Shown here in pieces: positions 2,701-26,216 of a stretch of DNA of 40,105 bases. Below the pieces are notes generated by a model. It did not search any database, was not told the DNA's origin, and saw only the letters and a list, made by a program, of their open reading frames with translations. The position numbers and the translations under genes are program-made. Source of the DNA: Clostridia bacterium (GTDB taxonomy: Bacteria > Bacillota > Clostridia > Christensenellales > UBA1242); NCBI GenBank assembly GCA_028694075.1, contig JAQUUD010000001.1, positions 1 through 40,105 on the forward strand, given 5' to 3'. The stretch's first letter is position 1, and every line of letters begins with the position of its first letter.

Positions 2701-3066
2701 TATCAGTTAGTCTGTAAGCCGAGTTCTGTATTAAATGGTCATCTATCTAGATGATATATCTCTATATCATTCAAGCGGTATTTTTGGATAACGCGAGAGA
2801 ACAAGCGCATATGTTATCACTTAACCTTGCTTCAAGTGGGGTTTACATGGCACATCTTGTTACCAAGATGTCGGTGGTCTCTTACACCGCCTTTTCACCA
2901 TCACCGCAATTTTAAAAATAAATTTAATTTCACGGCAGTATATTTCTGTTGCACTTTCCTTAGAGTTGCCTCCACCGGCAGTTAACCGGCACCCAGTTCT
3001 CTTAAAGCTCGGACTTTCCTCGGAACTGTCATTATAACAATCCCGCGACCATCTGGCTAGCTGACA
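2701..3066 (-). ncRNA. rnpB: RNase P RNA, bacterial class A
   Basis: The minus strand contains GAGGAAAGUCCGAGC (reverse complement of 3007..3021). It also contains GGAAAGUGCAACAGAAAUAUACUGCCG, GGUGUAAGAGACCACC, GUAAACCCCACUUGAAGCAAGG and ACAGAACUCGGCUUACAG. A P1-like pairing joins 3057..3066 and 2701..2710. The layout parallels E. coli M1 RNA. Confidence 0.93.
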
Positions 3067-3072
3067 TCATAT

Positions 3073-3100
3073 ATTATACTGAATTTAAAGAAAATGTCAA
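3073..3100 (-). promoter_or_regulatory. Sigma-A promoter for rnpB
   Basis: The minus strand reads TTGACA (3095..3100)-16 nt-TATAAT (3073..3078). This places the transcription start about 7 nt downstream, at the predicted RNA 5' end. Confidence 0.7.
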
Positions 3101-3146
3101 GATTAAAATATTTCAAGAACAACTGTTTTAATTACAAGATTGTTAC

Positions 3147-3730
3147 CGCGGACCAGCCAAACGAACAAAGCGAGCGGGCGTTAGCAGAGCGAGCGGGCGT
3201 TAGCAGGGCGAGCGGTCAGTTCCAGCCAAACGGACAAAGCGAGCGGGCGTTAGCAGGGCGAGCGGGCAGTTCCAGCCAAACGGACAAAGCGAGCGGGCGT
3301 TAGCAGAGCAAGCGGGCGTTAGCAGAGCGAGCGGTCAGTTCCAGCCAAACGAACAAAGCGAGCGGGCGTTAGCAGGGCGAGCGGGCGTTAGCAGGGCGAG
3401 CGGGCGTTAGCAGGGCGAGCGGGCAGTTCCAGCCAAACGGACAAAGCGAGCGGGCGTTAGCAGGGCGAGCGGGCGTTAGCAAAGCAAGCGGACAAGTCAA
3501 CCAAACGGACAAAGCGAGCGGGCGTTAGCAGAGCAAGCGGGCGTTAGCAGGGCGAGCGGTCAGTTCCAGCCAAACGGACAAAGCGAGCGGGCGTTAGCAA
3601 AGCAAGCGGACAAGCCAACCAAACGGGCAAAGCGAGCGGGCGAAGCGAAGCAAGCAGGGCGAGCGTCAAGCCAGTCAAACGGACAGAGCGAGCGGACAAA
3701 TCAACAGTCAAACGGGCTGGTCAAACAGGC
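3147..3730. repeat. GC-rich hierarchical tandem-repeat array A
   Basis: About 9-10 super-units. Each has a 22-nt punctuation (cagttccagccaaacggacaaa), then 1-3 copies of the 19-nt unit gcgagcgggcgttagcagg, then a 9-nt partial unit. The + strand is G-rich and T-poor. The array degenerates toward its right end. Confidence 0.9.
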
Positions 3731-3732
3731 TT

Positions 3733-3776
3733 TAAAAAAAATTAATCAGGTTACTGGTTAAGCGGTAACCTGATTA
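3733..3776 (-). terminator. Rho-independent terminator of rnhA
   Basis: A 12-bp stem taatcaggttac/gtaacctgatta (3743..3754 with 3765..3776) is followed on the minus strand by a T8 run. Confidence 0.75.
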
Positions 3777-3873
3777 CTTGGTAAATAAATTTATTTGATT
3801 TTTAAAAATATTTTAGATTTGTTACGCATCTTAAAAATTCAACAATAAAATTTGAGCGGAGCGATAATAAAAC

Positions 3874-4323
3874 TTACTTTTTTTCGCCAATAATTTTTTG
3901 AACTTCATTTCTTGCAAGTTCGTCACAGCGGTTGTTATAAATATTACTTGAATGCCCTTTTATTTTATGCCAATTAACTCGATGTTGTTTTGTTAATTCA
4001 ATTAATTGTTTCCAAAGGTCTTGATTTAAAACCGGCTTTTTATCAGAAGTTTTCCAATTGTTGTTTATCCAATTTGTCGTCCAACTTTGAATAAAAGCAT
4101 TAATAACATAAGCGCTGTCTGAATATACATCAACTATGCAAATTTCTTTTAAGGCTTGTAATCCTTTTATAATTGCCGTGAGTTCCATTCGGTTATTTGT
4201 TGTTTCAGGCTCACCGCCGGACAATTCTTTCAATGCTTTTTGATGCAATAAAATAGCGCCCCAGCCACCCGGGCCGGGATTATATGAACAAGCACCATCA
4301 GTATATAAAACAACTCTTTTCAT
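3874..4323 (-). CDS. rnhA: Ribonuclease HI
   Basis: MKRVVLYTDGACSYNPGPGGWGAILL... is the canonical RNase HI N-terminus, with the catalytic Asp at residue 9. The ORF was trimmed from 4353 to the ATG at 4323 because the extension lies inside the tRNA. Confidence 0.9.
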   Translation of the reverse strand: MKRVVLYTDGACSYNPGPGGWGAILLHQKALKELSGGEPETTNNRMELTAIIKGLQALKEICIVDVYSDSAYVINAFIQSWTTNWINNNWKTSDKKPVLNQDLWKQLIELTKQHRVNWHKIKGHSSNIYNNRCDELARNEVQKIIGEKK

Positions 4324-4397
4324 TGGCAGGGATGGAAGGAATCGAACCCTCAAAGCTGGTTTTGGAGACCAGAGCTATACCATTTAACTACATCCCT
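4324..4397 (-). tRNA. trnW: tRNA-Trp (anticodon CCA) with encoded 3' CCA
   Basis: The minus strand reads AGGGATGTAGTTAAATGGTATAGCTCTGGTCTCCAAAACCAGCTTTGAGGGTTCGATTCCTTCCATCCCTGCCA. The acceptor stem is AGGGATG/CATCCCT, the anticodon stem is CTGGT/ACCAG, the loop is CTCCAAA, and the T-loop is GGTTCGATTCC. Confidence 0.93.
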
Positions 4398-5951: not shown

Positions 5952-6111
5952 ATTTAATCCTTTAATTAAGATTATCACGCATTTAGTATTATTTTGTCAA
6001 GTTATTTGCTTTAAAATATATTTTTTGTTTATTTTAATATAAATTTCAAGATTTAGGTGTCTTTTTATTGTTTGTCAATTTATTATAATTTTAGCAGTGC
6101 CCGCTAATTAA

Positions 6112-6218
6112 CCGGCGAAGCCGGCGGGCGTTTGCCGTGCAAACGCCCGTGCGATATGCTTGGGGCAAGCCCCAAGCATATCGCCAAATCGCTTTCAGCG
6201 ATTTTTCGGCTTCGCCGG
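6112..6218. repeat. Nested perfect palindrome: 12-bp closing stem enclosing three hairpins
   Basis: Closing stem ccggcgaagccg (6112..6123) pairs with cggcttcgccgg (6207..6218). Arms are cgggcgtttgc-cgt-gcaaacgcccg, gcgatatgcttgggg-caa(g)-ccccaagcatatcgc and aaatcgct-ttc-agcgattt. Confidence 0.85.
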
Positions 6219-8620: not shown

Positions 8621-9709
8621 TTAAATAAACTCAAATTCTTTATCTGACGTTGTTGAATAAATTGTAATGCTTCCGTCATTATTTAAACATCTATTCAAGC
8701 CCATAAGTTTTCTTAAAGTTTTCATTGTGCTGTATGCGTGAATATCTTTATGTTCACCTTTTGCAAGAAAATACATATCAAGTTCTGTGTAAATATTTTC
8801 AACATCTAAAACCACAATAACCACTTTTTGTCCAGTTCTTGCAAGCACTGTTGCGTGATTTATTGCATTATTAACCGCTTCAAATGCATATAAAGGTTCA
8901 TTTTCAAAATAACTAACAAAATCTGTAAACTTTGTTATATATTTTTGAATTTTCAACAAACCGTCAGCTGGCACTCCAACTGCAACTATAAACAAAGAGT
9001 AGCCTTTTTTTACTAATTCATTTAACACATTTGCTTTTTTTTCAATAAATTCCATTCTGCTTGGGCTATAAATGTGTGTTTTTGAGCCTTCTTTAATATT
9101 ATCAACTATTTCAACATTGTCGTTTAATACGACATCTTTTATTGAGCAAAATTTTCGGAAACAATTTTCAAATTTTTTTCCGTTTAATTTTTCAATATCC
9201 CGTGCCATAAAATAATTTTTGCCTTTAACACCTGAAGCAATAACCGACAAATAATCTCCGGAAACTAAACCAAATTGTGCAACCAGCACATCAGGCACAT
9301 ATACCAAATCATCATCTGTTGTGCAAAAATAATAATCGTGATTGTGTTTTATGAGATAACCTTGCTTGTGTTCCATTACGCTATTAATTTCATTTTCTTC
9401 ATTTTGAGCAAACGGCAAGAACCTGTCAATTAAGATAGTATCCTTATTACGTTGTTCAGCAAAATCAAGAAGTTCCTTTGGTAATAAATCTTCCTGAAAT
9501 CCTCTTGCCATAAGTTTATTTTTAATCGGACGACCGGCTTTTTGTTTCACTGCCAATTTTTTTTCGCCTGACATAATTTGTATTATTTCATTTATCAACT
9601 TTTCTTTTTTCATAATTGTGGGAGAAGGCACGCCCCACATACGTGCGATGTTTCTCAGGTCGTGAACACCTAAATTTTCCAGTTGCAATTTTCTTTCTGC
9701 TAAATCCAT
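8621..9709 (-). CDS. Rho-derived protein: Rho_N domain, Rho-like RNA-binding OB fold and a degenerate RecA-like domain
   Basis: The N-terminus LENLGVHDLRNIARMWGV...KEKLINEIIQ resembles Rho_N. GYLIKHNHDYYF...LVYVPDVLVAQFGLVSGDYLSV parallels Rho GFGFLR...DIYVSPSQIRRFNLRTGD. The positions of Walker A (GSKTHIYSPSRMEFIE) and Walker B (VIVVLDVEN) lack GKT and the acidic catalytic context. Confidence 0.7.
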   Translation of the reverse strand: MDLAERKLQLENLGVHDLRNIARMWGVPSPTIMKKEKLINEIIQIMSGEKKLAVKQKAGRPIKNKLMARGFQEDLLPKELLDFAEQRNKDTILIDRFLPFAQNEENEINSVMEHKQGYLIKHNHDYYFCTTDDDLVYVPDVLVAQFGLVSGDYLSVIASGVKGKNYFMARDIEKLNGKKFENCFRKFCSIKDVVLNDNVEIVDNIKEGSKTHIYSPSRMEFIEKKANVLNELVKKGYSLFIVAVGVPADGLLKIQKYITKFTDFVSYFENEPLYAFEAVNNAINHATVLARTGQKVVIVVLDVENIYTELDMYFLAKGEHKDIHAYSTMKTLRKLMGLNRCLNNDGSITIYSTTSDKEFEFI

Positions 9710-9823
9710 ATTTTTCTCCTTTGTCTTATAAATGATATTCGTATATTACCTTATTTTTTGTATTTTGTATAGCCTTTCGACTATTGCAGACAAAAGCAAA
9801 CATATTTATATCAATTTCAGCAA

Positions 9824-9852
9824 ATTGTAACATAAGTTTGAATGGTTTGCAA
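9824..9852 (-). promoter_or_regulatory. Sigma-A promoter (extended -10) for the Rho-like gene
   Basis: The minus strand reads TTGCAA (9847..9852)-17 nt-TACAAT (9824..9829), preceded by TGT. Confidence 0.6.
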
Positions 9853-9956
9853 GTCTATTGTATAAAATTATCATCGTGCTTTCAAAATTAAGTTGAAATA
9901 ACCATACTTTTAATATAATTATTAATTTTTTTAATCAAAAAAGTTGCATAATCGGT

Positions 9957-10282
9957 TGGCGAAGTCAAACAAATCAAACGGACAAGTCGAACAAGTCAAA
10001 CGGACAAAGCGAGCGGGCGAAGCGGAGCGGAGCAGGGCGAGCGGGCGAAGCGGAGCGAGCGGGCGGAGCAGGGCGAGCGGGCGAAGCGGAGCGAGCGGGC
10101 GGAGCAGGGCGAGCGGGCGAAGCGGAGCGAGCGGGCAACAGTCAAACGGACAAGTCGAACTGGTCAAACGGACAAGTCGAACTGGTCGAACGGACAAGTC
10201 GAACTGGTCGAACGGACAAGTCGAACTGGTCGAACGGACAAAGCGAGCGGACAACAAGTCAAACGGACAAGTCAAACAAAAA
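9957..10282. repeat. GC-rich tandem-repeat array B (two sub-arrays)
   Basis: Sub-array 1 has 18-nt units gcgagcgggcgaagcgga and gcgagcgggcggagcagg alternating, giving a 36-nt super-period with about 3.5 copies (10009..10136). Sub-array 2 has the 22-nt unit ggacaagtcgaactggtcgaac in about 5 copies (10146..10240). The array is flanked by GTCAAAC(A/G) motifs. The + strand is nearly T-free. Confidence 0.9.
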
Positions 10283-10386
10283 GCGGGCAGGGAAGCAAAT
10301 TTTTGACCTTCAAGTCAAAAATTTTCAGCAAAACTGATTCAAGTTTTGCTGAACAAGCCTTTAAAGGCTTGTTCTTCCCTGCCCGC
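10283..10386. repeat. Nested perfect palindrome: 13-bp closing stem enclosing three hairpins, abutting array B
   Basis: Closing stem gcgggcagggaag (10283..10295) pairs with cttccctgcccgc (10374..10386). Arms are aaatttttgac-cttcaa-gtcaaaaattt, cagcaaaact-gattca-agttttgctg and aacaagcct-ttaa-aggcttgtt. On the minus strand it is followed by TTTTTGTTTG. Confidence 0.88.
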
Positions 10387-10533
10387 AATTTAGTTGGTAA
10401 AAATCCTAAAATATTAAATTATCTTTACAATAATCAATCAAATATTAATCTTACTTCAATTTAATTATTCTCAATATACTTTTTAAATTAAAATTAAAAT
10501 TCTTTACTGAACTTTTTATAAATAAATTTTTTT

Positions 10534-10599
10534 ATAAACTAAATTTTCTTATAAACTAAATTTTCTTATAAACTAAATTTTCTTATAAACTAAATTTTC
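10534..10599. repeat. AT-rich 17-nt tandem repeat, about 3.9 copies
   Basis: The unit ataaactaaattttctt is repeated perfectly at 10534, 10551 and 10568, with a partial copy at 10585. It lies just downstream of the ypeB stop. Confidence 0.9.
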
Positions 10600-10615
10600 A
10601 ATTGTTTACTAAAAA

Positions 10616-12175
10616 TTACATCAGTAAGTTTCCATTGTCTGTTTGAATAACTTTTAAAATATTCTCTTCTTTTCCGTTGCTTGAGTTAATATAAAAATAA
10701 TAATCATCACCGCCATATTTGCAAACAAATTCGTGACAAAGCACTTCTCTGCCGTAATCAAGAGGGATTAATGCCACTCTTTCTTGCGAAATTACATATT
10801 TCGCACCAATTTTGTTTCTTGCTGTATCAACCGACACACTGCCTTTTTGAAGACTTCTTTCAACGTGATTCATATAATATGAAGTTGCTTCATAACCCAA
10901 TACAATTCCATTATATAAATCAATTTTTAGTTTTACAAGGTCAGGATATAAAATTATATCATTTTGGACAGGTGCAAGATTAATAAAGGCATTTCCGTTT
11001 ACTGTGTCACTCCAAACAACTTTCATATTTTCAAGTTTATTCTTTTTTGCAAAGTCTAATGCAATTGCTTCAGCATTTTTTAAGGTAAGTTTTTTGCCTT
11101 TACTTCCTGACTCATTTTGATTAATGTTTTTTTCCTCAATTTCTTCTGTATCAACTTTATTCTCCACTATTTCGCTTTGTGTGGTTTCTTTGACATTTTT
11201 TTCACTTACATCAGGATCTTCTTTATTAAATTTAGTTGAATTTGTATTTTTATTTTTAAAATTTTCATAACTTTCGTTTTCTTCCTTATTTGCGTTATAA
11301 GCAGAAAGGGTCAATAAATGTCCGCCAACCTTGCTCATTTGCACAAAAGCGACTATATCTTTTTCATTTTCCTTTGCCTGAACTCTAAAATTATATGTTT
11401 GGAAATTGCCATTTGATTCATTTTCAAGTTCTACCATTTCATCGGTGTAATCACTGAAAATCTCTAGCAAAGTTGCTTTTGCTGTGCCTTCATCAACAGT
11501 GTTGCCTTTCAAGCCCTTAACTTCTTTTTTAACCTGAGAATCTGAGAACGGACCATCATAAATTAGAACCGGATATTCAACTCCTTCGGGCTTTATTGAT
11601 TTCATATCAATCGTGAAACCATTAAAATCACCATTTAGGCTATTCGATGTTTTTACAATACTATAACCATTCCACATATCTTTGGTCATTAGATTCAATG
11701 AATCTTTCATATCTAAAACGGAATCATAAATATTTTCAAGTTCTTTGATTTGGGTTGAACTTAATTTTTGCCCTTTGACCAAATTTTTACTTAAAGTTTC
11801 GGTGTAACCGCCAACTTGATTTATGAAAGCAATGCCTTCATCAAGGCCATTCATTGAATAAGGCAAATTGTTTAAATTTTCTTGTGCCATAACTGCATTT
11901 CTGCTGATTTGGTCAAGCATTTTTGCCTGATACTCTTCGTCAGTTGATGACAAGGTTTTGGCTAATTTGGTTTCAGTGTTGTTTATATTATCCACCAAAT
12001 CATAAAAATTCTTTTGATAAACATCTTCCAAATCCAGTGCAGTGTTCATTGCGTTTTGCATAGTTACTGCATAAAGAATTAATGTGATTAACAAAAGTGC
12101 ACTTAAAATCCAGACTGCAATCACCAGCGCTTTGTTATTTTTTATAATTTCTTTTGTCTTGCTTTTTTCTGCCAT
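10616..12175 (-). CDS. ypeB: Germination protein YpeB
   Basis: N-terminal TM anchor, YpeB-like middle region and C-terminal PepSY-like repeats. It lies directly downstream of sleB as in Bacillus and Clostridium. The RBS is aaaaaggagatt. Confidence 0.85.
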   Translation of the reverse strand: MAEKSKTKEIIKNNKALVIAVWILSALLLITLILYAVTMQNAMNTALDLEDVYQKNFYDLVDNINNTETKLAKTLSSTDEEYQAKMLDQISRNAVMAQENLNNLPYSMNGLDEGIAFINQVGGYTETLSKNLVKGQKLSSTQIKELENIYDSVLDMKDSLNLMTKDMWNGYSIVKTSNSLNGDFNGFTIDMKSIKPEGVEYPVLIYDGPFSDSQVKKEVKGLKGNTVDEGTAKATLLEIFSDYTDEMVELENESNGNFQTYNFRVQAKENEKDIVAFVQMSKVGGHLLTLSAYNANKEENESYENFKNKNTNSTKFNKEDPDVSEKNVKETTQSEIVENKVDTEEIEEKNINQNESGSKGKKLTLKNAEAIALDFAKKNKLENMKVVWSDTVNGNAFINLAPVQNDIILYPDLVKLKIDLYNGIVLGYEATSYYMNHVERSLQKGSVSVDTARNKIGAKYVISQERVALIPLDYGREVLCHEFVCKYGGDDYYFYINSSNGKEENILKVIQTDNGNLLM

Positions 12176-13607: not shown

Positions 13608-13642
13608 AAAAAACTTTGTTTTGTAAATAATAGTTGATTAAA

Positions 13643-13743
13643 ACGGCGACTAAAAGGAAATTTTGCAAACGCAAAATTTTTCAAGATAAAATCTTGGGCT
13701 TGATTTTAAGCGTACGCTTAAAATCAAGCCTTTTAGTCGCCGT
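13643..13743. repeat. Nested perfect palindrome: 15-bp closing stem enclosing three hairpins
   Basis: Closing stem acggcgactaaaagg (13643..13657) pairs with ccttttagtcgccgt (13729..13743). Arms are aaattttgc-aaac-gcaaaattt, caagat-aaa-atcttg and the 32-nt perfect palindrome gcttgattttaagcg-ta-cgcttaaaatcaagc. Confidence 0.88.
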
Positions 13744-13929
13744 GTTCGCTTTCGTGCGATTTAATATGCTATATGTTCGTTCACTTGAAGTTAGAAAAAA
13801 TGCCAAAAGTAAATATACTTTCGACATTTTTTTAATCGTGTTTTTTGATTTTTTTTTAATAAAAACTAGATGTCTTTTATTATTAATTTATAATTACAAT
13901 TATATGTTTTTTATTAATGAATAAAATTT

Positions 13930-19526: not shown

Positions 19527-19572
19527 AAACCAGCCCGCCCGCTCGCGACAAGTTAATGCACACTCGCCAATT
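19527..19572. repeat. Solo GC-rich repeat core in inverted orientation
   Basis: ccagcccgcccgctcgcgac carries the reverse complement of GCGAGCGGGCGGG. It lies upstream of a + strand gene. Confidence 0.5.
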
Positions 19573-19787
19573 CTTCTAATTTTAACTCGATCATTTTTTT
19601 AATAATGATATTTCCAATTTGTCAGTAATTAAAAATATTCAAATTGAGTAATTTATTAAATATTTTAATAATTTTCAATATTTTAGTTAACTTATAAAAT
19701 TAATTCGTATAAAATCGCTTATATTAATAATGCTAATTATATCTATATTAAATTATTTGCTAGTATAAAAAATTACTAAGCTTTCAG

Positions 19788-21175: not shown

Positions 21176-21409
21176 ATAAGAATACAAACAAACTCCAGTT
21201 AAAATATTTTGCAGGAATTTGTTATTTAAATAAATTAGTTATAATAAATTATTTGCAAAAAGTATTTCGTCGGAGTTATGTTTTAAATAAATTCTTAAAA
21301 TAATTATTTTATAGAACTATCTTTATTAAGTTTAATTCGACAAAAAACTGATAGCAAAAAAATTTCATAGTTTTAGTAATTTTGATAATAGTTTTTTAAA
21401 GAAAGATAT

Positions 21410-21503
21410 TTCGCCGGCAGAGGTTGGCTTTGAAAAAGCCAACGCAAACACGAAAGTGTTTGCTGGGATTTGAGATTTTCTCAAATCCCGCTCTGCCGGC
21501 GAA
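21410..21503. repeat. Nested perfect palindrome: 13-bp closing stem enclosing three hairpins
   Basis: Closing stem ttcgccggcagag (21410..21422) pairs with ctctgccggcgaa (21491..21503). Arms are gttggcttt-gaa-aaagccaac, gcaaacac-gaaa-gtgtttgc and gggatttgaga-ttt-tctcaaatccc. A T-rich tract follows on the + strand. Confidence 0.88.
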
Positions 21504-21767
21504 TTTTATTTTATAACTAAACTTTTCAATTCACTTCTTAATTAAACTAAACTGATTTTAAAAAAGCAATGAATAATGTTAAACAATATAGAGTTTTTTA
21601 TTCGCTAACGAATATTATAATTCATTTCTTCTTAACTAAATTATATTATATCAAATAAAATTTAATATAAAAAATCAACAAGCCTTTTATTCTAGCCTAT
21701 CCACTAATAAAATCTTAATTGTTCTTGATTAGAATTTAACATTTATAAGTTGGTTAAGTCTATGTGT

Positions 21768-25958: not shown

Positions 25959-26216
25959 GGTCTAACGGGCAAATCAAACGGGTCAAACGGACCGAGCGAG
26001 CGGGCGAGCCAGAGTCTAACGGGCAATTCAAACGGGTCAAACGGACCGAGCGAGCGGGCGAGCCAGAGTCTAACGGGCAATTCAAACGGGTCTAACGGAC
26101 CGAGCGAGCGGGCGAGCCAGAGTCTAACGGGCAATTCAAACGGGTCTAACGGACCGAGCGAGCGGGCGAGCCAGAGTCTAACGGGCAATTCAAACGGGTC
26201 TAACGGACAAATCAAA
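25959..26216. repeat. GC-rich tandem-repeat array C (54-nt period, about 4.5 copies)
   Basis: The unit gtctaacgggcaattcaaacgggtc(t/a)aacggaccgagcgagcgggcgagccaga has ACCGAG phase markers at 25991, 26045, 26099 and 26153. It shares the GCGAGCGGGCG and CAAACGGG/TAACGGAC motifs with arrays A and B. Confidence 0.9.

Follow-up and report, generated by a model that had tools for sequence, protein, structure and literature searches.

A T-poor tandem array in an uncultured Clostridia bacterium is probably one locus of a dispersed mosaic minisatellite family

Why would an AT-rich genome carry, in the gap from the end of a transcription unit to the promoter of the next, about 300 nucleotides of GC-rich tandem repeats that are almost free of T on one strand? 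We addressed this question for an array, here called array B, in a 40,105-nt stretch of DNA (the window) from a Clostridia bacterium. The window, at about 32% GC, encodes SleB, YpeB, Tex, a ClpC-like ATPase, HPF, RNase H and RNase P RNA, a gene content that marks it as chromosomal DNA of a spore-forming member of the Clostridia, and the majority of its genes lie on the minus strand. A sequence-only reading had suggested that the array acts as an insulator or in the manner of an UP element, or that it marks a hotspot at which two classes of element insert. Our analysis indicates that array B is probably one locus of a lineage-specific, dispersed, hypervariable and non-coding family of mosaic minisatellites, with no part in the neighbouring promoter and no sequence-specific regulatory role at this locus.

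Array B contains two sub-arrays

A non-coding tandem array is indeed present where the sequence-only reading had placed one (9957-10282), although sequence inspection and Tandem Repeats Finder narrow the repeat span to 9964-10277. Both methods also agree with the proposed order of an 18/36-nt periodic block followed by a 22-nt block. All segments are described on the plus strand. The promoter-side edge (9964..10008), delimited by inspection and core search, holds S-type units (GTCAAAC, ATCAAACGGAC, GTCGAAC and GTCAAACGGAC). It is followed by a G-type block (10009..10137; Tandem Repeats Finder, core search and composition) in which the 18-nt units GCGAGCGGGCGAAGCGGA and GCGAGCGGGCGGAGCAGG alternate to form a 36-nt higher-order repeat; the core CGAGCGGGC occurs seven times, and the block is 80% GC without a single T. 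Tandem Repeats Finder describes 10012-10136 either with a period of 18 (6.9 copies, 82% matches) or, alternatively, with a period of 36 (3.4 copies, 96% matches). An S-type block (10141..10241; Tandem Repeats Finder and core search) then repeats the 22-nt unit GTC(A/G)AACGGACAAGTCGAACTG 4.6 times with 98% matches, and the terminator-side edge (10242..10277; inspection and 9-mer analysis) consists of AGCGAGCGGACAACAA, GTCAAACGGACAA and GTCAAAC. The motif GTCAAAC(A/G) does lie at both edges, as had been noted (9964, 9995, 10258 and 10271), and the plus strand is nearly T-free: T makes up 6.1% of 9957-10282 and 0% of the 18/36-nt block, compared with 36.5% of the whole window, and GC reaches 60% in the array region compared with 32% in the window. 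G-quadruplex and H-DNA structures were considered; most G-runs are 3 long and the loops between them 6-15 nt, and the strand does not consist of purines only.

One 9-mer underlies three arrays in the window

Two further arrays in the window, both on the plus strand, share these repeats. Array A (3153-3731; Tandem Repeats Finder, promoter and terminator reading) has periods of 19-118 and reaches from the T-tract of the rnhA terminator hairpin to a point 53 bp upstream of the -35 hexamer in a perfect TTGACA-16-TATAAT promoter (3100-3073, minus strand), that of RNase P RNA. Array C (25960-26208; Tandem Repeats Finder) comprises 4.6 copies of a 54-nt unit and fills the gap from the stop codon of the clpC-like gene (26243) to the start codon of hpf (25909), with no terminator between the clpC-like gene and the array and no convincing promoter between the array and hpf. 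Beside array A, the mechanical RNase H open reading frame (3874-4353, minus strand, TTG start at 4353) overlaps the tRNA-Trp gene (4324-4397, minus strand); the real RNase H start codon must therefore be further downstream.

Every repeat unit is a variant of the 9-mer C-R/T-A-R-C-G-G-R-C. The pattern CRARCGGRC has 51 matches in the window against 0.7 expected, 49 of them within arrays A, B and C and all of these on the plus strand. The cores GCGAGCGGGCG (28 copies at no more than one mismatch) and GYCNAACGGRC (23 copies), each expected 0.08 times in the window, are likewise confined to the plus strand of the three arrays, save for one minus-strand relic at 19536-19546. The extreme S-type core, CAAACGGAC, and the extreme G-type core, CGAGCGGGC, differ only by three A/G transitions, and intermediates between them occur (CAAGCGGGC, CAAGCGGAC, CGAACGGAC, CGAGCGGAC and CAAACGGGC). 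When 117 distinct sites from 13 arrays were aligned on CGGRC, position -4 was C in 99% and position -2 was A in 100%; the linkers between the 9-mers vary across the same sites.

Joined by short variable linkers, the 9-mers give unit lengths of 9, 11, 13, 18, 19, 20, 22, 36, 50 and 54 nt. The 18/36-nt block has a 9-nt periodicity one level down, and the 22-nt unit is two 9-mers with linkers of 2-4 nt. The description of two different sub-arrays with common cores is thus correct, both cores being versions of one 9-mer, and their differences reflect hierarchical repeat evolution. The same holds for the proposal that arrays A, B and C share cores and diversify in period: judged by their sequences, the three are one locally diversified family with a common 9-mer and site-specific periods and linkers.

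The relic belongs to a solitary, decayed unit found by core search (19530..19552, CTTGTCGCGAGCGGGCGGGCTGG read on the minus strand), which lies in a divergent promoter region and is the sole copy in the opposite orientation. Within 19530-19590, GCACACTCGCC comes after the reversed decayed unit CCAGCCCGCCCGCTCGCGACAAG and is similar to the decayed flank of an array in a relative (contig L002, described below).

Array B fills the spacer from a likely terminator to a promoter

Read along the minus strand, the end of ypeB (10616) is followed by a 17-nt repeat, a nested palindrome, array B, a promoter, a leader and the start codon of the next gene (9709). The AT-rich 17-nt repeat, TTATAAACTAAATTTTC, was found by Tandem Repeats Finder and strain comparison right after the ypeB stop codon (10516..10599). 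It is present five times in the window, four times in the orthologous contig L242 and once in L128, and is thus a second variable repeat in the same spacer. The palindrome (10283-10386, minus strand) has a 13-bp GC-rich outer stem (GCGGGCAGGGAAG) that encloses three hairpins and runs into UUUUU (TTTTT at 10282-10278). It folds as a four-way junction at -68.6 kcal/mol (z = -12.3) and is kept in L128 and L242. Folding and comparison with relatives make this element (10278..10386, minus strand) the likely terminator of sleB-ypeB. Array B begins at the last base of its U-tract and extends to 9964; as had been proposed, the array occupies the interval between the nested palindrome and the promoter, filling the spacer from a terminator-like structure to the next transcription start.

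In relatives, a plain ypeB terminator hairpin occupies the position of the nested palindrome, and GCAGGGAAG is common to both. The notion of a hotspot at which both element classes insert was therefore only partly right: to judge from the sequence, the palindrome replaces the plain hairpin and looks like an elaborated terminator, not an inserted copy. Palindromes of this second class, about 100 nt long with a GC-rich outer stem around two or three hairpins, are also present at 6110-6215, 13640-13746 and 21387-21526 of the window and at 3765-3890 of L002; a T-tract follows only the copy that adjoins array B. The orthologue of 6110-6215 in L002 has the same architecture with different hairpin sequences, which suggests that the structure is conserved.

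On its other side, array B faces the promoter TTGCAA-17-(TG)TACAAT (9852-9824, minus strand), identified by promoter reading. The promoter itself was confirmed and is conserved in four relatives, but the array does not lie immediately upstream, as had been stated, its edge being about 105 bp from the -35 hexamer. UP elements are A/T-rich and sit at about -40 to -60. The suggested UP-element-like role fails on this distance, on the array's 60-80% GC and on the conservation of promoter and leader where no array is present; the array content is also rebuilt between strains whose flanks agree at 93-97% identity. The leader, about 110 nt long (9710-9823, minus strand), is kept together with the promoter in relatives with and without the array; it matches no Rfam family and may have a regulatory role. 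Its conservation extends down to relatives with 66% protein identity, with invariant TCGAA and TACAAA blocks.

The gene that follows (8621-9709, minus strand) had been called Rho-like, a label that applies to its N-terminal domain and to nothing beyond it. The protein scores 24.1 bits against Pfam Rho_N, below the cut-off of 24.9, and 35 bits against NCBIfam rho, whose cut-off is 315. Its profile matches residues 23-130 of Rho in the PDB, that is, the N-terminal RNA-binding part only, and its C-terminal half matches no recognisable ATPase family. This Rho_N-domain protein forms a small family that is confined to uncultured Clostridia and adjoins sleB-ypeB, and its closest named relatives are genomes labelled 'Clostridia bacterium'. 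The exact protein is not on record; contigs of relatives were fetched through homologues of it.

Array content turns over between strains

A motif scan of metagenome contigs gave 8 low-GC true positives among the 120 loci listed, a site count that is a lower bound. Four of these contigs are orthologues of the window and cover site A (L164), site B (L242, L128) and site C (L200). Each of them carries an array at its site, with flanks 92.6-98.6% identical to the window; the array interiors are rebuilt and their edges partly conserved. Independent short-read assemblies end inside arrays (L001, L002, L128, L242, L152, L160 and L260), so copy numbers in such contigs are untrustworthy and possibly collapsed, and turnover can be read safely only from differences in unit type. 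Such differences exist. At site B, L242 has 49-nt and 20-nt units that are absent from the window; at site A, L164 is without the TTAGCAG linker that dominates array A; and at site C, L200 has A-like units instead of the 54-nt repeat. The arrays also differ in length, to which the same caution applies: site B is much shorter in L128, and site A measures about 290 bp in L164 against 580 bp in the window. The order at site B is kept across strains, with the G-type block on the promoter side and the S-type block on the terminator side.

More distant relatives date the array. In L002 (85% protein identity), a different, 20-nt array with the window-orientation unit TAACGGGCACATCAACAGTC occupies the same insertion point; beside it is a decayed GC-rich stretch ending at that point (CAACTTTTTT), and the contig breaks within the repeat. 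In L005-L008 (66% identity), the order sleB-ypeB-gene is kept, but only 264-277 bp separate ypeB from the gene, with a plain terminator hairpin and then the same promoter and leader, and there is no CRARCGGRC cluster within about 20 kb. Array B is therefore older than the split from L002, dispensable and outside the promoter.

In a further relative, L003 (76% identity), no GC-rich array precedes this promoter; the space upstream (3040-3790) is instead occupied by AT-rich 20-nt repeats (AACTTGTCTAAGGTTAAAAA) and, on the opposite strand, by three tRNA-like genes.

Further sites share position and orientation

At least five further family sites occur in metagenome contigs: one each in L152, L214 and L228 and two in L160. 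The L152 array lies upstream of rpsU, those of L160 at both ends of a two-gene operon and that of L214 directly after a terminator hairpin; the L228 array starts 2 nt after a stop codon. All arrays are intergenic; the distance from the upstream stop codon or terminator to the array is 0-60 nt, and that from the array to the next promoter or start codon is 50-105 bp. At three sites (array C, L228 and the left array of L160), no intrinsic terminator is visible between the gene and the array. The L214 array, 600 nt long, is degenerate and reads AATGG instead of AACGG, as AT-biased mutation would be expected to produce in the absence of selection.

Wherever the context is known, in nine arrays of nine, the flanking genes run antisense to the G-rich, T-poor strand, a result in which gene direction and replication direction are confounded. 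The simplest explanation of such uniformity would be that selection disfavours the opposite orientation in read-through DNA.

Established element classes do not fit

The array does not behave as any of the standard short elements. The units are contiguous without unique spacers, in contrast to a CRISPR array. REP/BIME, BOX and MITE-like elements were rejected on the lack of inverted repeats inside the array and on folding: shuffled sequences fold better than either strand (z = +1.76 for the sense strand and +1.38 for the other), and no Rfam family reaches the gathering score anywhere in the window, with only sub-threshold matches in 9600-10700. Iterons proper do not fit the neighbours, which are sleB, ypeB, the Rho_N-domain gene, rnpB, rnhA, clpC and hpf, with no rep gene. 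MIRU proper was rejected because the host is an AT-rich spore-forming member of the Clostridia and not mycobacterial, and because the units are unrelated 9-mer mosaics.

AGCGG and GAAGCGG are the Chi sequences of Bacillus and Staphylococcus. Outside the arrays, AGCGG shows no strand skew (31 vs 23), and within them it lies opposite to the strand of most genes; array motifs in general are not enriched elsewhere in the window. Together, these results argue against a Chi-like or genome-wide signal.

A probable mosaic minisatellite and its rivals

The arrays are head-to-tail direct repeats whose unit recurs at several loci, varies between strains and lies in intergenic, non-coding DNA, as expected of minisatellites. 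We infer the molecular processes, and neutrality, from these patterns. Replication slippage, unequal recombination and the copying of units from array to array would enlarge and reshuffle the arrays, with rearrangement running much faster than point substitution, and old arrays would then decay towards AT. They would be tolerated only in the spacer from the end of a transcription unit to the next promoter, which would itself be functionless, and would persist through tolerance, possibly helped by a drive such as GC-biased repair of recombining repeats. Three observations weigh against this account: plain slippage does not explain T-poor units of 60-80% GC in a 32% GC genome, nor the single orientation of all nine arrays, nor how the family reached new sites. 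Neither the window nor the metagenome sites showed terminal inverted repeats, target duplications or a linked gene at the arrays. Protein recognition, besides recent common descent, could account for the near-invariant C..A.CGG.C seen across sites and lineages.

Orientation and composition make a putative transcription insulator the rival to consider most closely. Here, read-through RNA from the array would load Rho in one orientation only, so that the array would serve as a fail-safe or sole terminator and shield the next promoter. Measured in 78-nt windows, C makes up on average 39%, and at most 59%, of the sense strand in the arrays, compared with a background of 14%; the C/G ratio has a mean of 1.6 over the three arrays and reaches 2.57 in the 18/36-nt block of array B, and chains of up to 7 C residues are spaced 11-13 nt apart. 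This composition fits permissive criteria for rut sites, namely at least 70-80 nt with C>G, little structure and regularly spaced C (PMC6407284), although the same criteria yield 23,930 predictions in E. coli (PMC6407284). The sense RNA is indeed less structured than its shuffled counterparts and, being A-poor, could contain almost no AUG, stop codons or AGGAGG-type ribosome-binding sites. The C-rich strand is the sense strand of the flanking genes wherever context is known, the arrays begin close behind the upstream unit, and at the three sites that have no visible intrinsic terminator the array would be transcribed; Rho loading, with its loose sequence needs, would also tolerate fast turnover. 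However, the neighbouring gene carries just a Rho-like N-terminal domain, and the presence of a canonical Rho is an assumption. G still makes up 22-25% of the arrays, which is not G-poor by E. coli standards, and arrays A, B and L214 come after strong intrinsic terminators that would leave little RNA to act on. Array C is separated from the hpf start codon by 50 nt that contain no convincing promoter, and efficient termination in it would silence hpf; relatives L005-L008 manage without arrays; and the orientation argument carries the confounding with replication direction. We regard Rho-dependent insulation as unlikely. A bolder proposal would have the arrays maintained by selection as self-renewing, orientation-dependent insulators, in a genome too AT-rich to form such tracts by chance, their C-rich, A-poor, unstructured RNA without AUG or stops loading Rho or an analogous factor between transcription units; alternatively, an undescribed dedicated process of templated synthesis or repair would lay them down after gene ends. 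This pair of ideas we consider quite unlikely.

The constancy of the core also raises the prospect of a binding array, in which a lineage-specific DNA-binding protein would recognise CRARCGGRC, for example as a nucleoid organiser, as a barrier protein or in iteron-like titration, or in which the eight GTCGAA units of array B would be near-consensus Spo0A boxes. Invariant core positions with variable linkers, across sites and lineages, are consistent with such a role, as is the 22-nt unit, which spans about two helical turns. In phage and plasmid BLAST searches, the sole matches were the 21-bp iterons of an Acinetobacter plasmid (GAACGGACAAAACGTATGGTT, 5.8 copies, beside a rep gene), which pair with the 22-nt block; the array architecture thus resembles known binding arrays. 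The match itself is a partial 10-nt identity multiplied through repetition and was dismissed as a chance resemblance. The Spo0A box is TGTCGAA. GTCGAA covers 6 of its 7 bases and the locus lies among sporulation and germination genes, but GTCGAAC is abundant only in the array B of the window: its eight copies there compare with two in L242 and none in L128 (contigs that end inside arrays), and an Spo0A-box cluster was rejected since the motif is not conserved at the locus. Core spacing is irregular (9, 11, 13, 18, 19 and 22 nt), which gives no constant helical phase; old arrays decay freely, as in L214; the motifs are not enriched outside arrays; and no rep or partner gene lies nearby. We judge a binding array very unlikely.

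If transcribed, the plus strand of array B would give a U-free RNA that could act as a sponge, with GGA motifs (ACGGAC, GCGGAG) sequestering a CsrA-type protein in the manner of CsrB/RsmZ. About 20 GGA motifs are present on that strand on inspection, and repeat-rich sponge RNAs evolve quickly, a point in favour of this reading. Against it, the strand has no convincing promoter or terminator, the RNA would be unstructured, so that the GGA motifs are not displayed in hairpin loops, and no Rfam family is matched at threshold. Such an RNA would also be antisense to every neighbouring gene, and its content would vary by strain; the sponge is an extremely improbable reading. Effectively refuted is a repetitive protein encoded by the mechanical open reading frames 9944-10306 (plus) or 9931-10275 (minus). 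Three plus-strand frames and one minus-strand frame are free of stops because the plus strand is almost T-free and the minus strand, hence, almost A-free. Neither units of 19, 20 and 22 nt nor the changes in length from strain to strain preserve the reading frame; a protein search with all stop-free translations of the array returned no homologue, and no protein family was matched.

Nearest known repeat systems

The preferred reading, a mosaic minisatellite, places the arrays nearest to MIRU-type minisatellites, to BIME/NIME/BOX mosaics and to cyanobacterial STRRs, which are the closest known kinds. BIMEs in E. coli, NIMEs in Neisseria and pneumococcal BOX elements are modular intergenic mosaics of a few short motifs, often just past gene 3' ends. 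The arrays are likewise modular and intergenic, with variable combination and number of motifs; unlike those palindromic or inverted-repeat units, which form hairpins, they are purely direct repeats, strand-asymmetric and fold worse than random sequence. Cyanobacterial STRRs are lineage-specific short tandem repeats dispersed in intergenic regions, with no known function. The arrays match this description as a lineage-specific intergenic family of short tandem repeats, but they form hierarchical higher-order units instead of simple heptamer repeats and contrast strongly in composition with their host. MIRUs are minisatellites with copy-number variation (PMC3635867). As in MIRUs, the arrays are tandem direct repeats of tens of bases that form one family at many intergenic loci with strain-variable copy number. 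Their sequence, however, is unrelated, their 9-mer mosaics vary in period and unit type by site and strain, they are GC-rich and T-poor with one orientation in an AT-rich genome, and their turnover goes beyond copy number in swapping unit types.

Two functional systems share individual traits with the arrays. Like rut sites, the sense RNA would contain more C than G, lack structure, measure 250-580 nt and recruit no ribosomes; rut sites in nature are not tandem-repeat arrays, and the likeness is one of composition and folding. Like plasmid iterons of 21-22 bp, array B has 22-nt tandem direct repeats; in contrast to iterons, the arrays are chromosomal, lack a rep gene, number three with different periods within 40 kb and are hypervariable between strains.

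Even if they are no more than fast-evolving repeat DNA, the arrays mark strain-level variation in an uncultured Clostridia lineage and explain why assemblies of that lineage break at these sites. The family would then provide a clean example of the birth, homogenisation and decay of GC-rich repeats inside an AT-rich genome, and would bear on GC-biased repair in bacteria and on how repeats can spread with no transposase. If their orientation does reflect function, the arrays would be a new kind of modular terminator or insulator.

Occurrence outside the lineage

A literature search on the motif and on GC-rich intergenic repeats, as well as scans of viral contigs for the array motifs, returned nothing relevant. 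Scanning species-representative genomes with a three-motif pattern gave, among the matches listed, only chance or coding ones in GC-rich genomes, including coding repeats of the collagen-like and PNGQ types and, in Poribacteria, a single 22-nt array that is unrelated. This last array (L032, 7480-7715; Candidatus Poribacteria, OZ242325.1) looks non-coding and has more than 10 copies of a 21-22-nt unit, GTCCAA(AA)CGGGCGAGGTGAT, in an unrelated genome.
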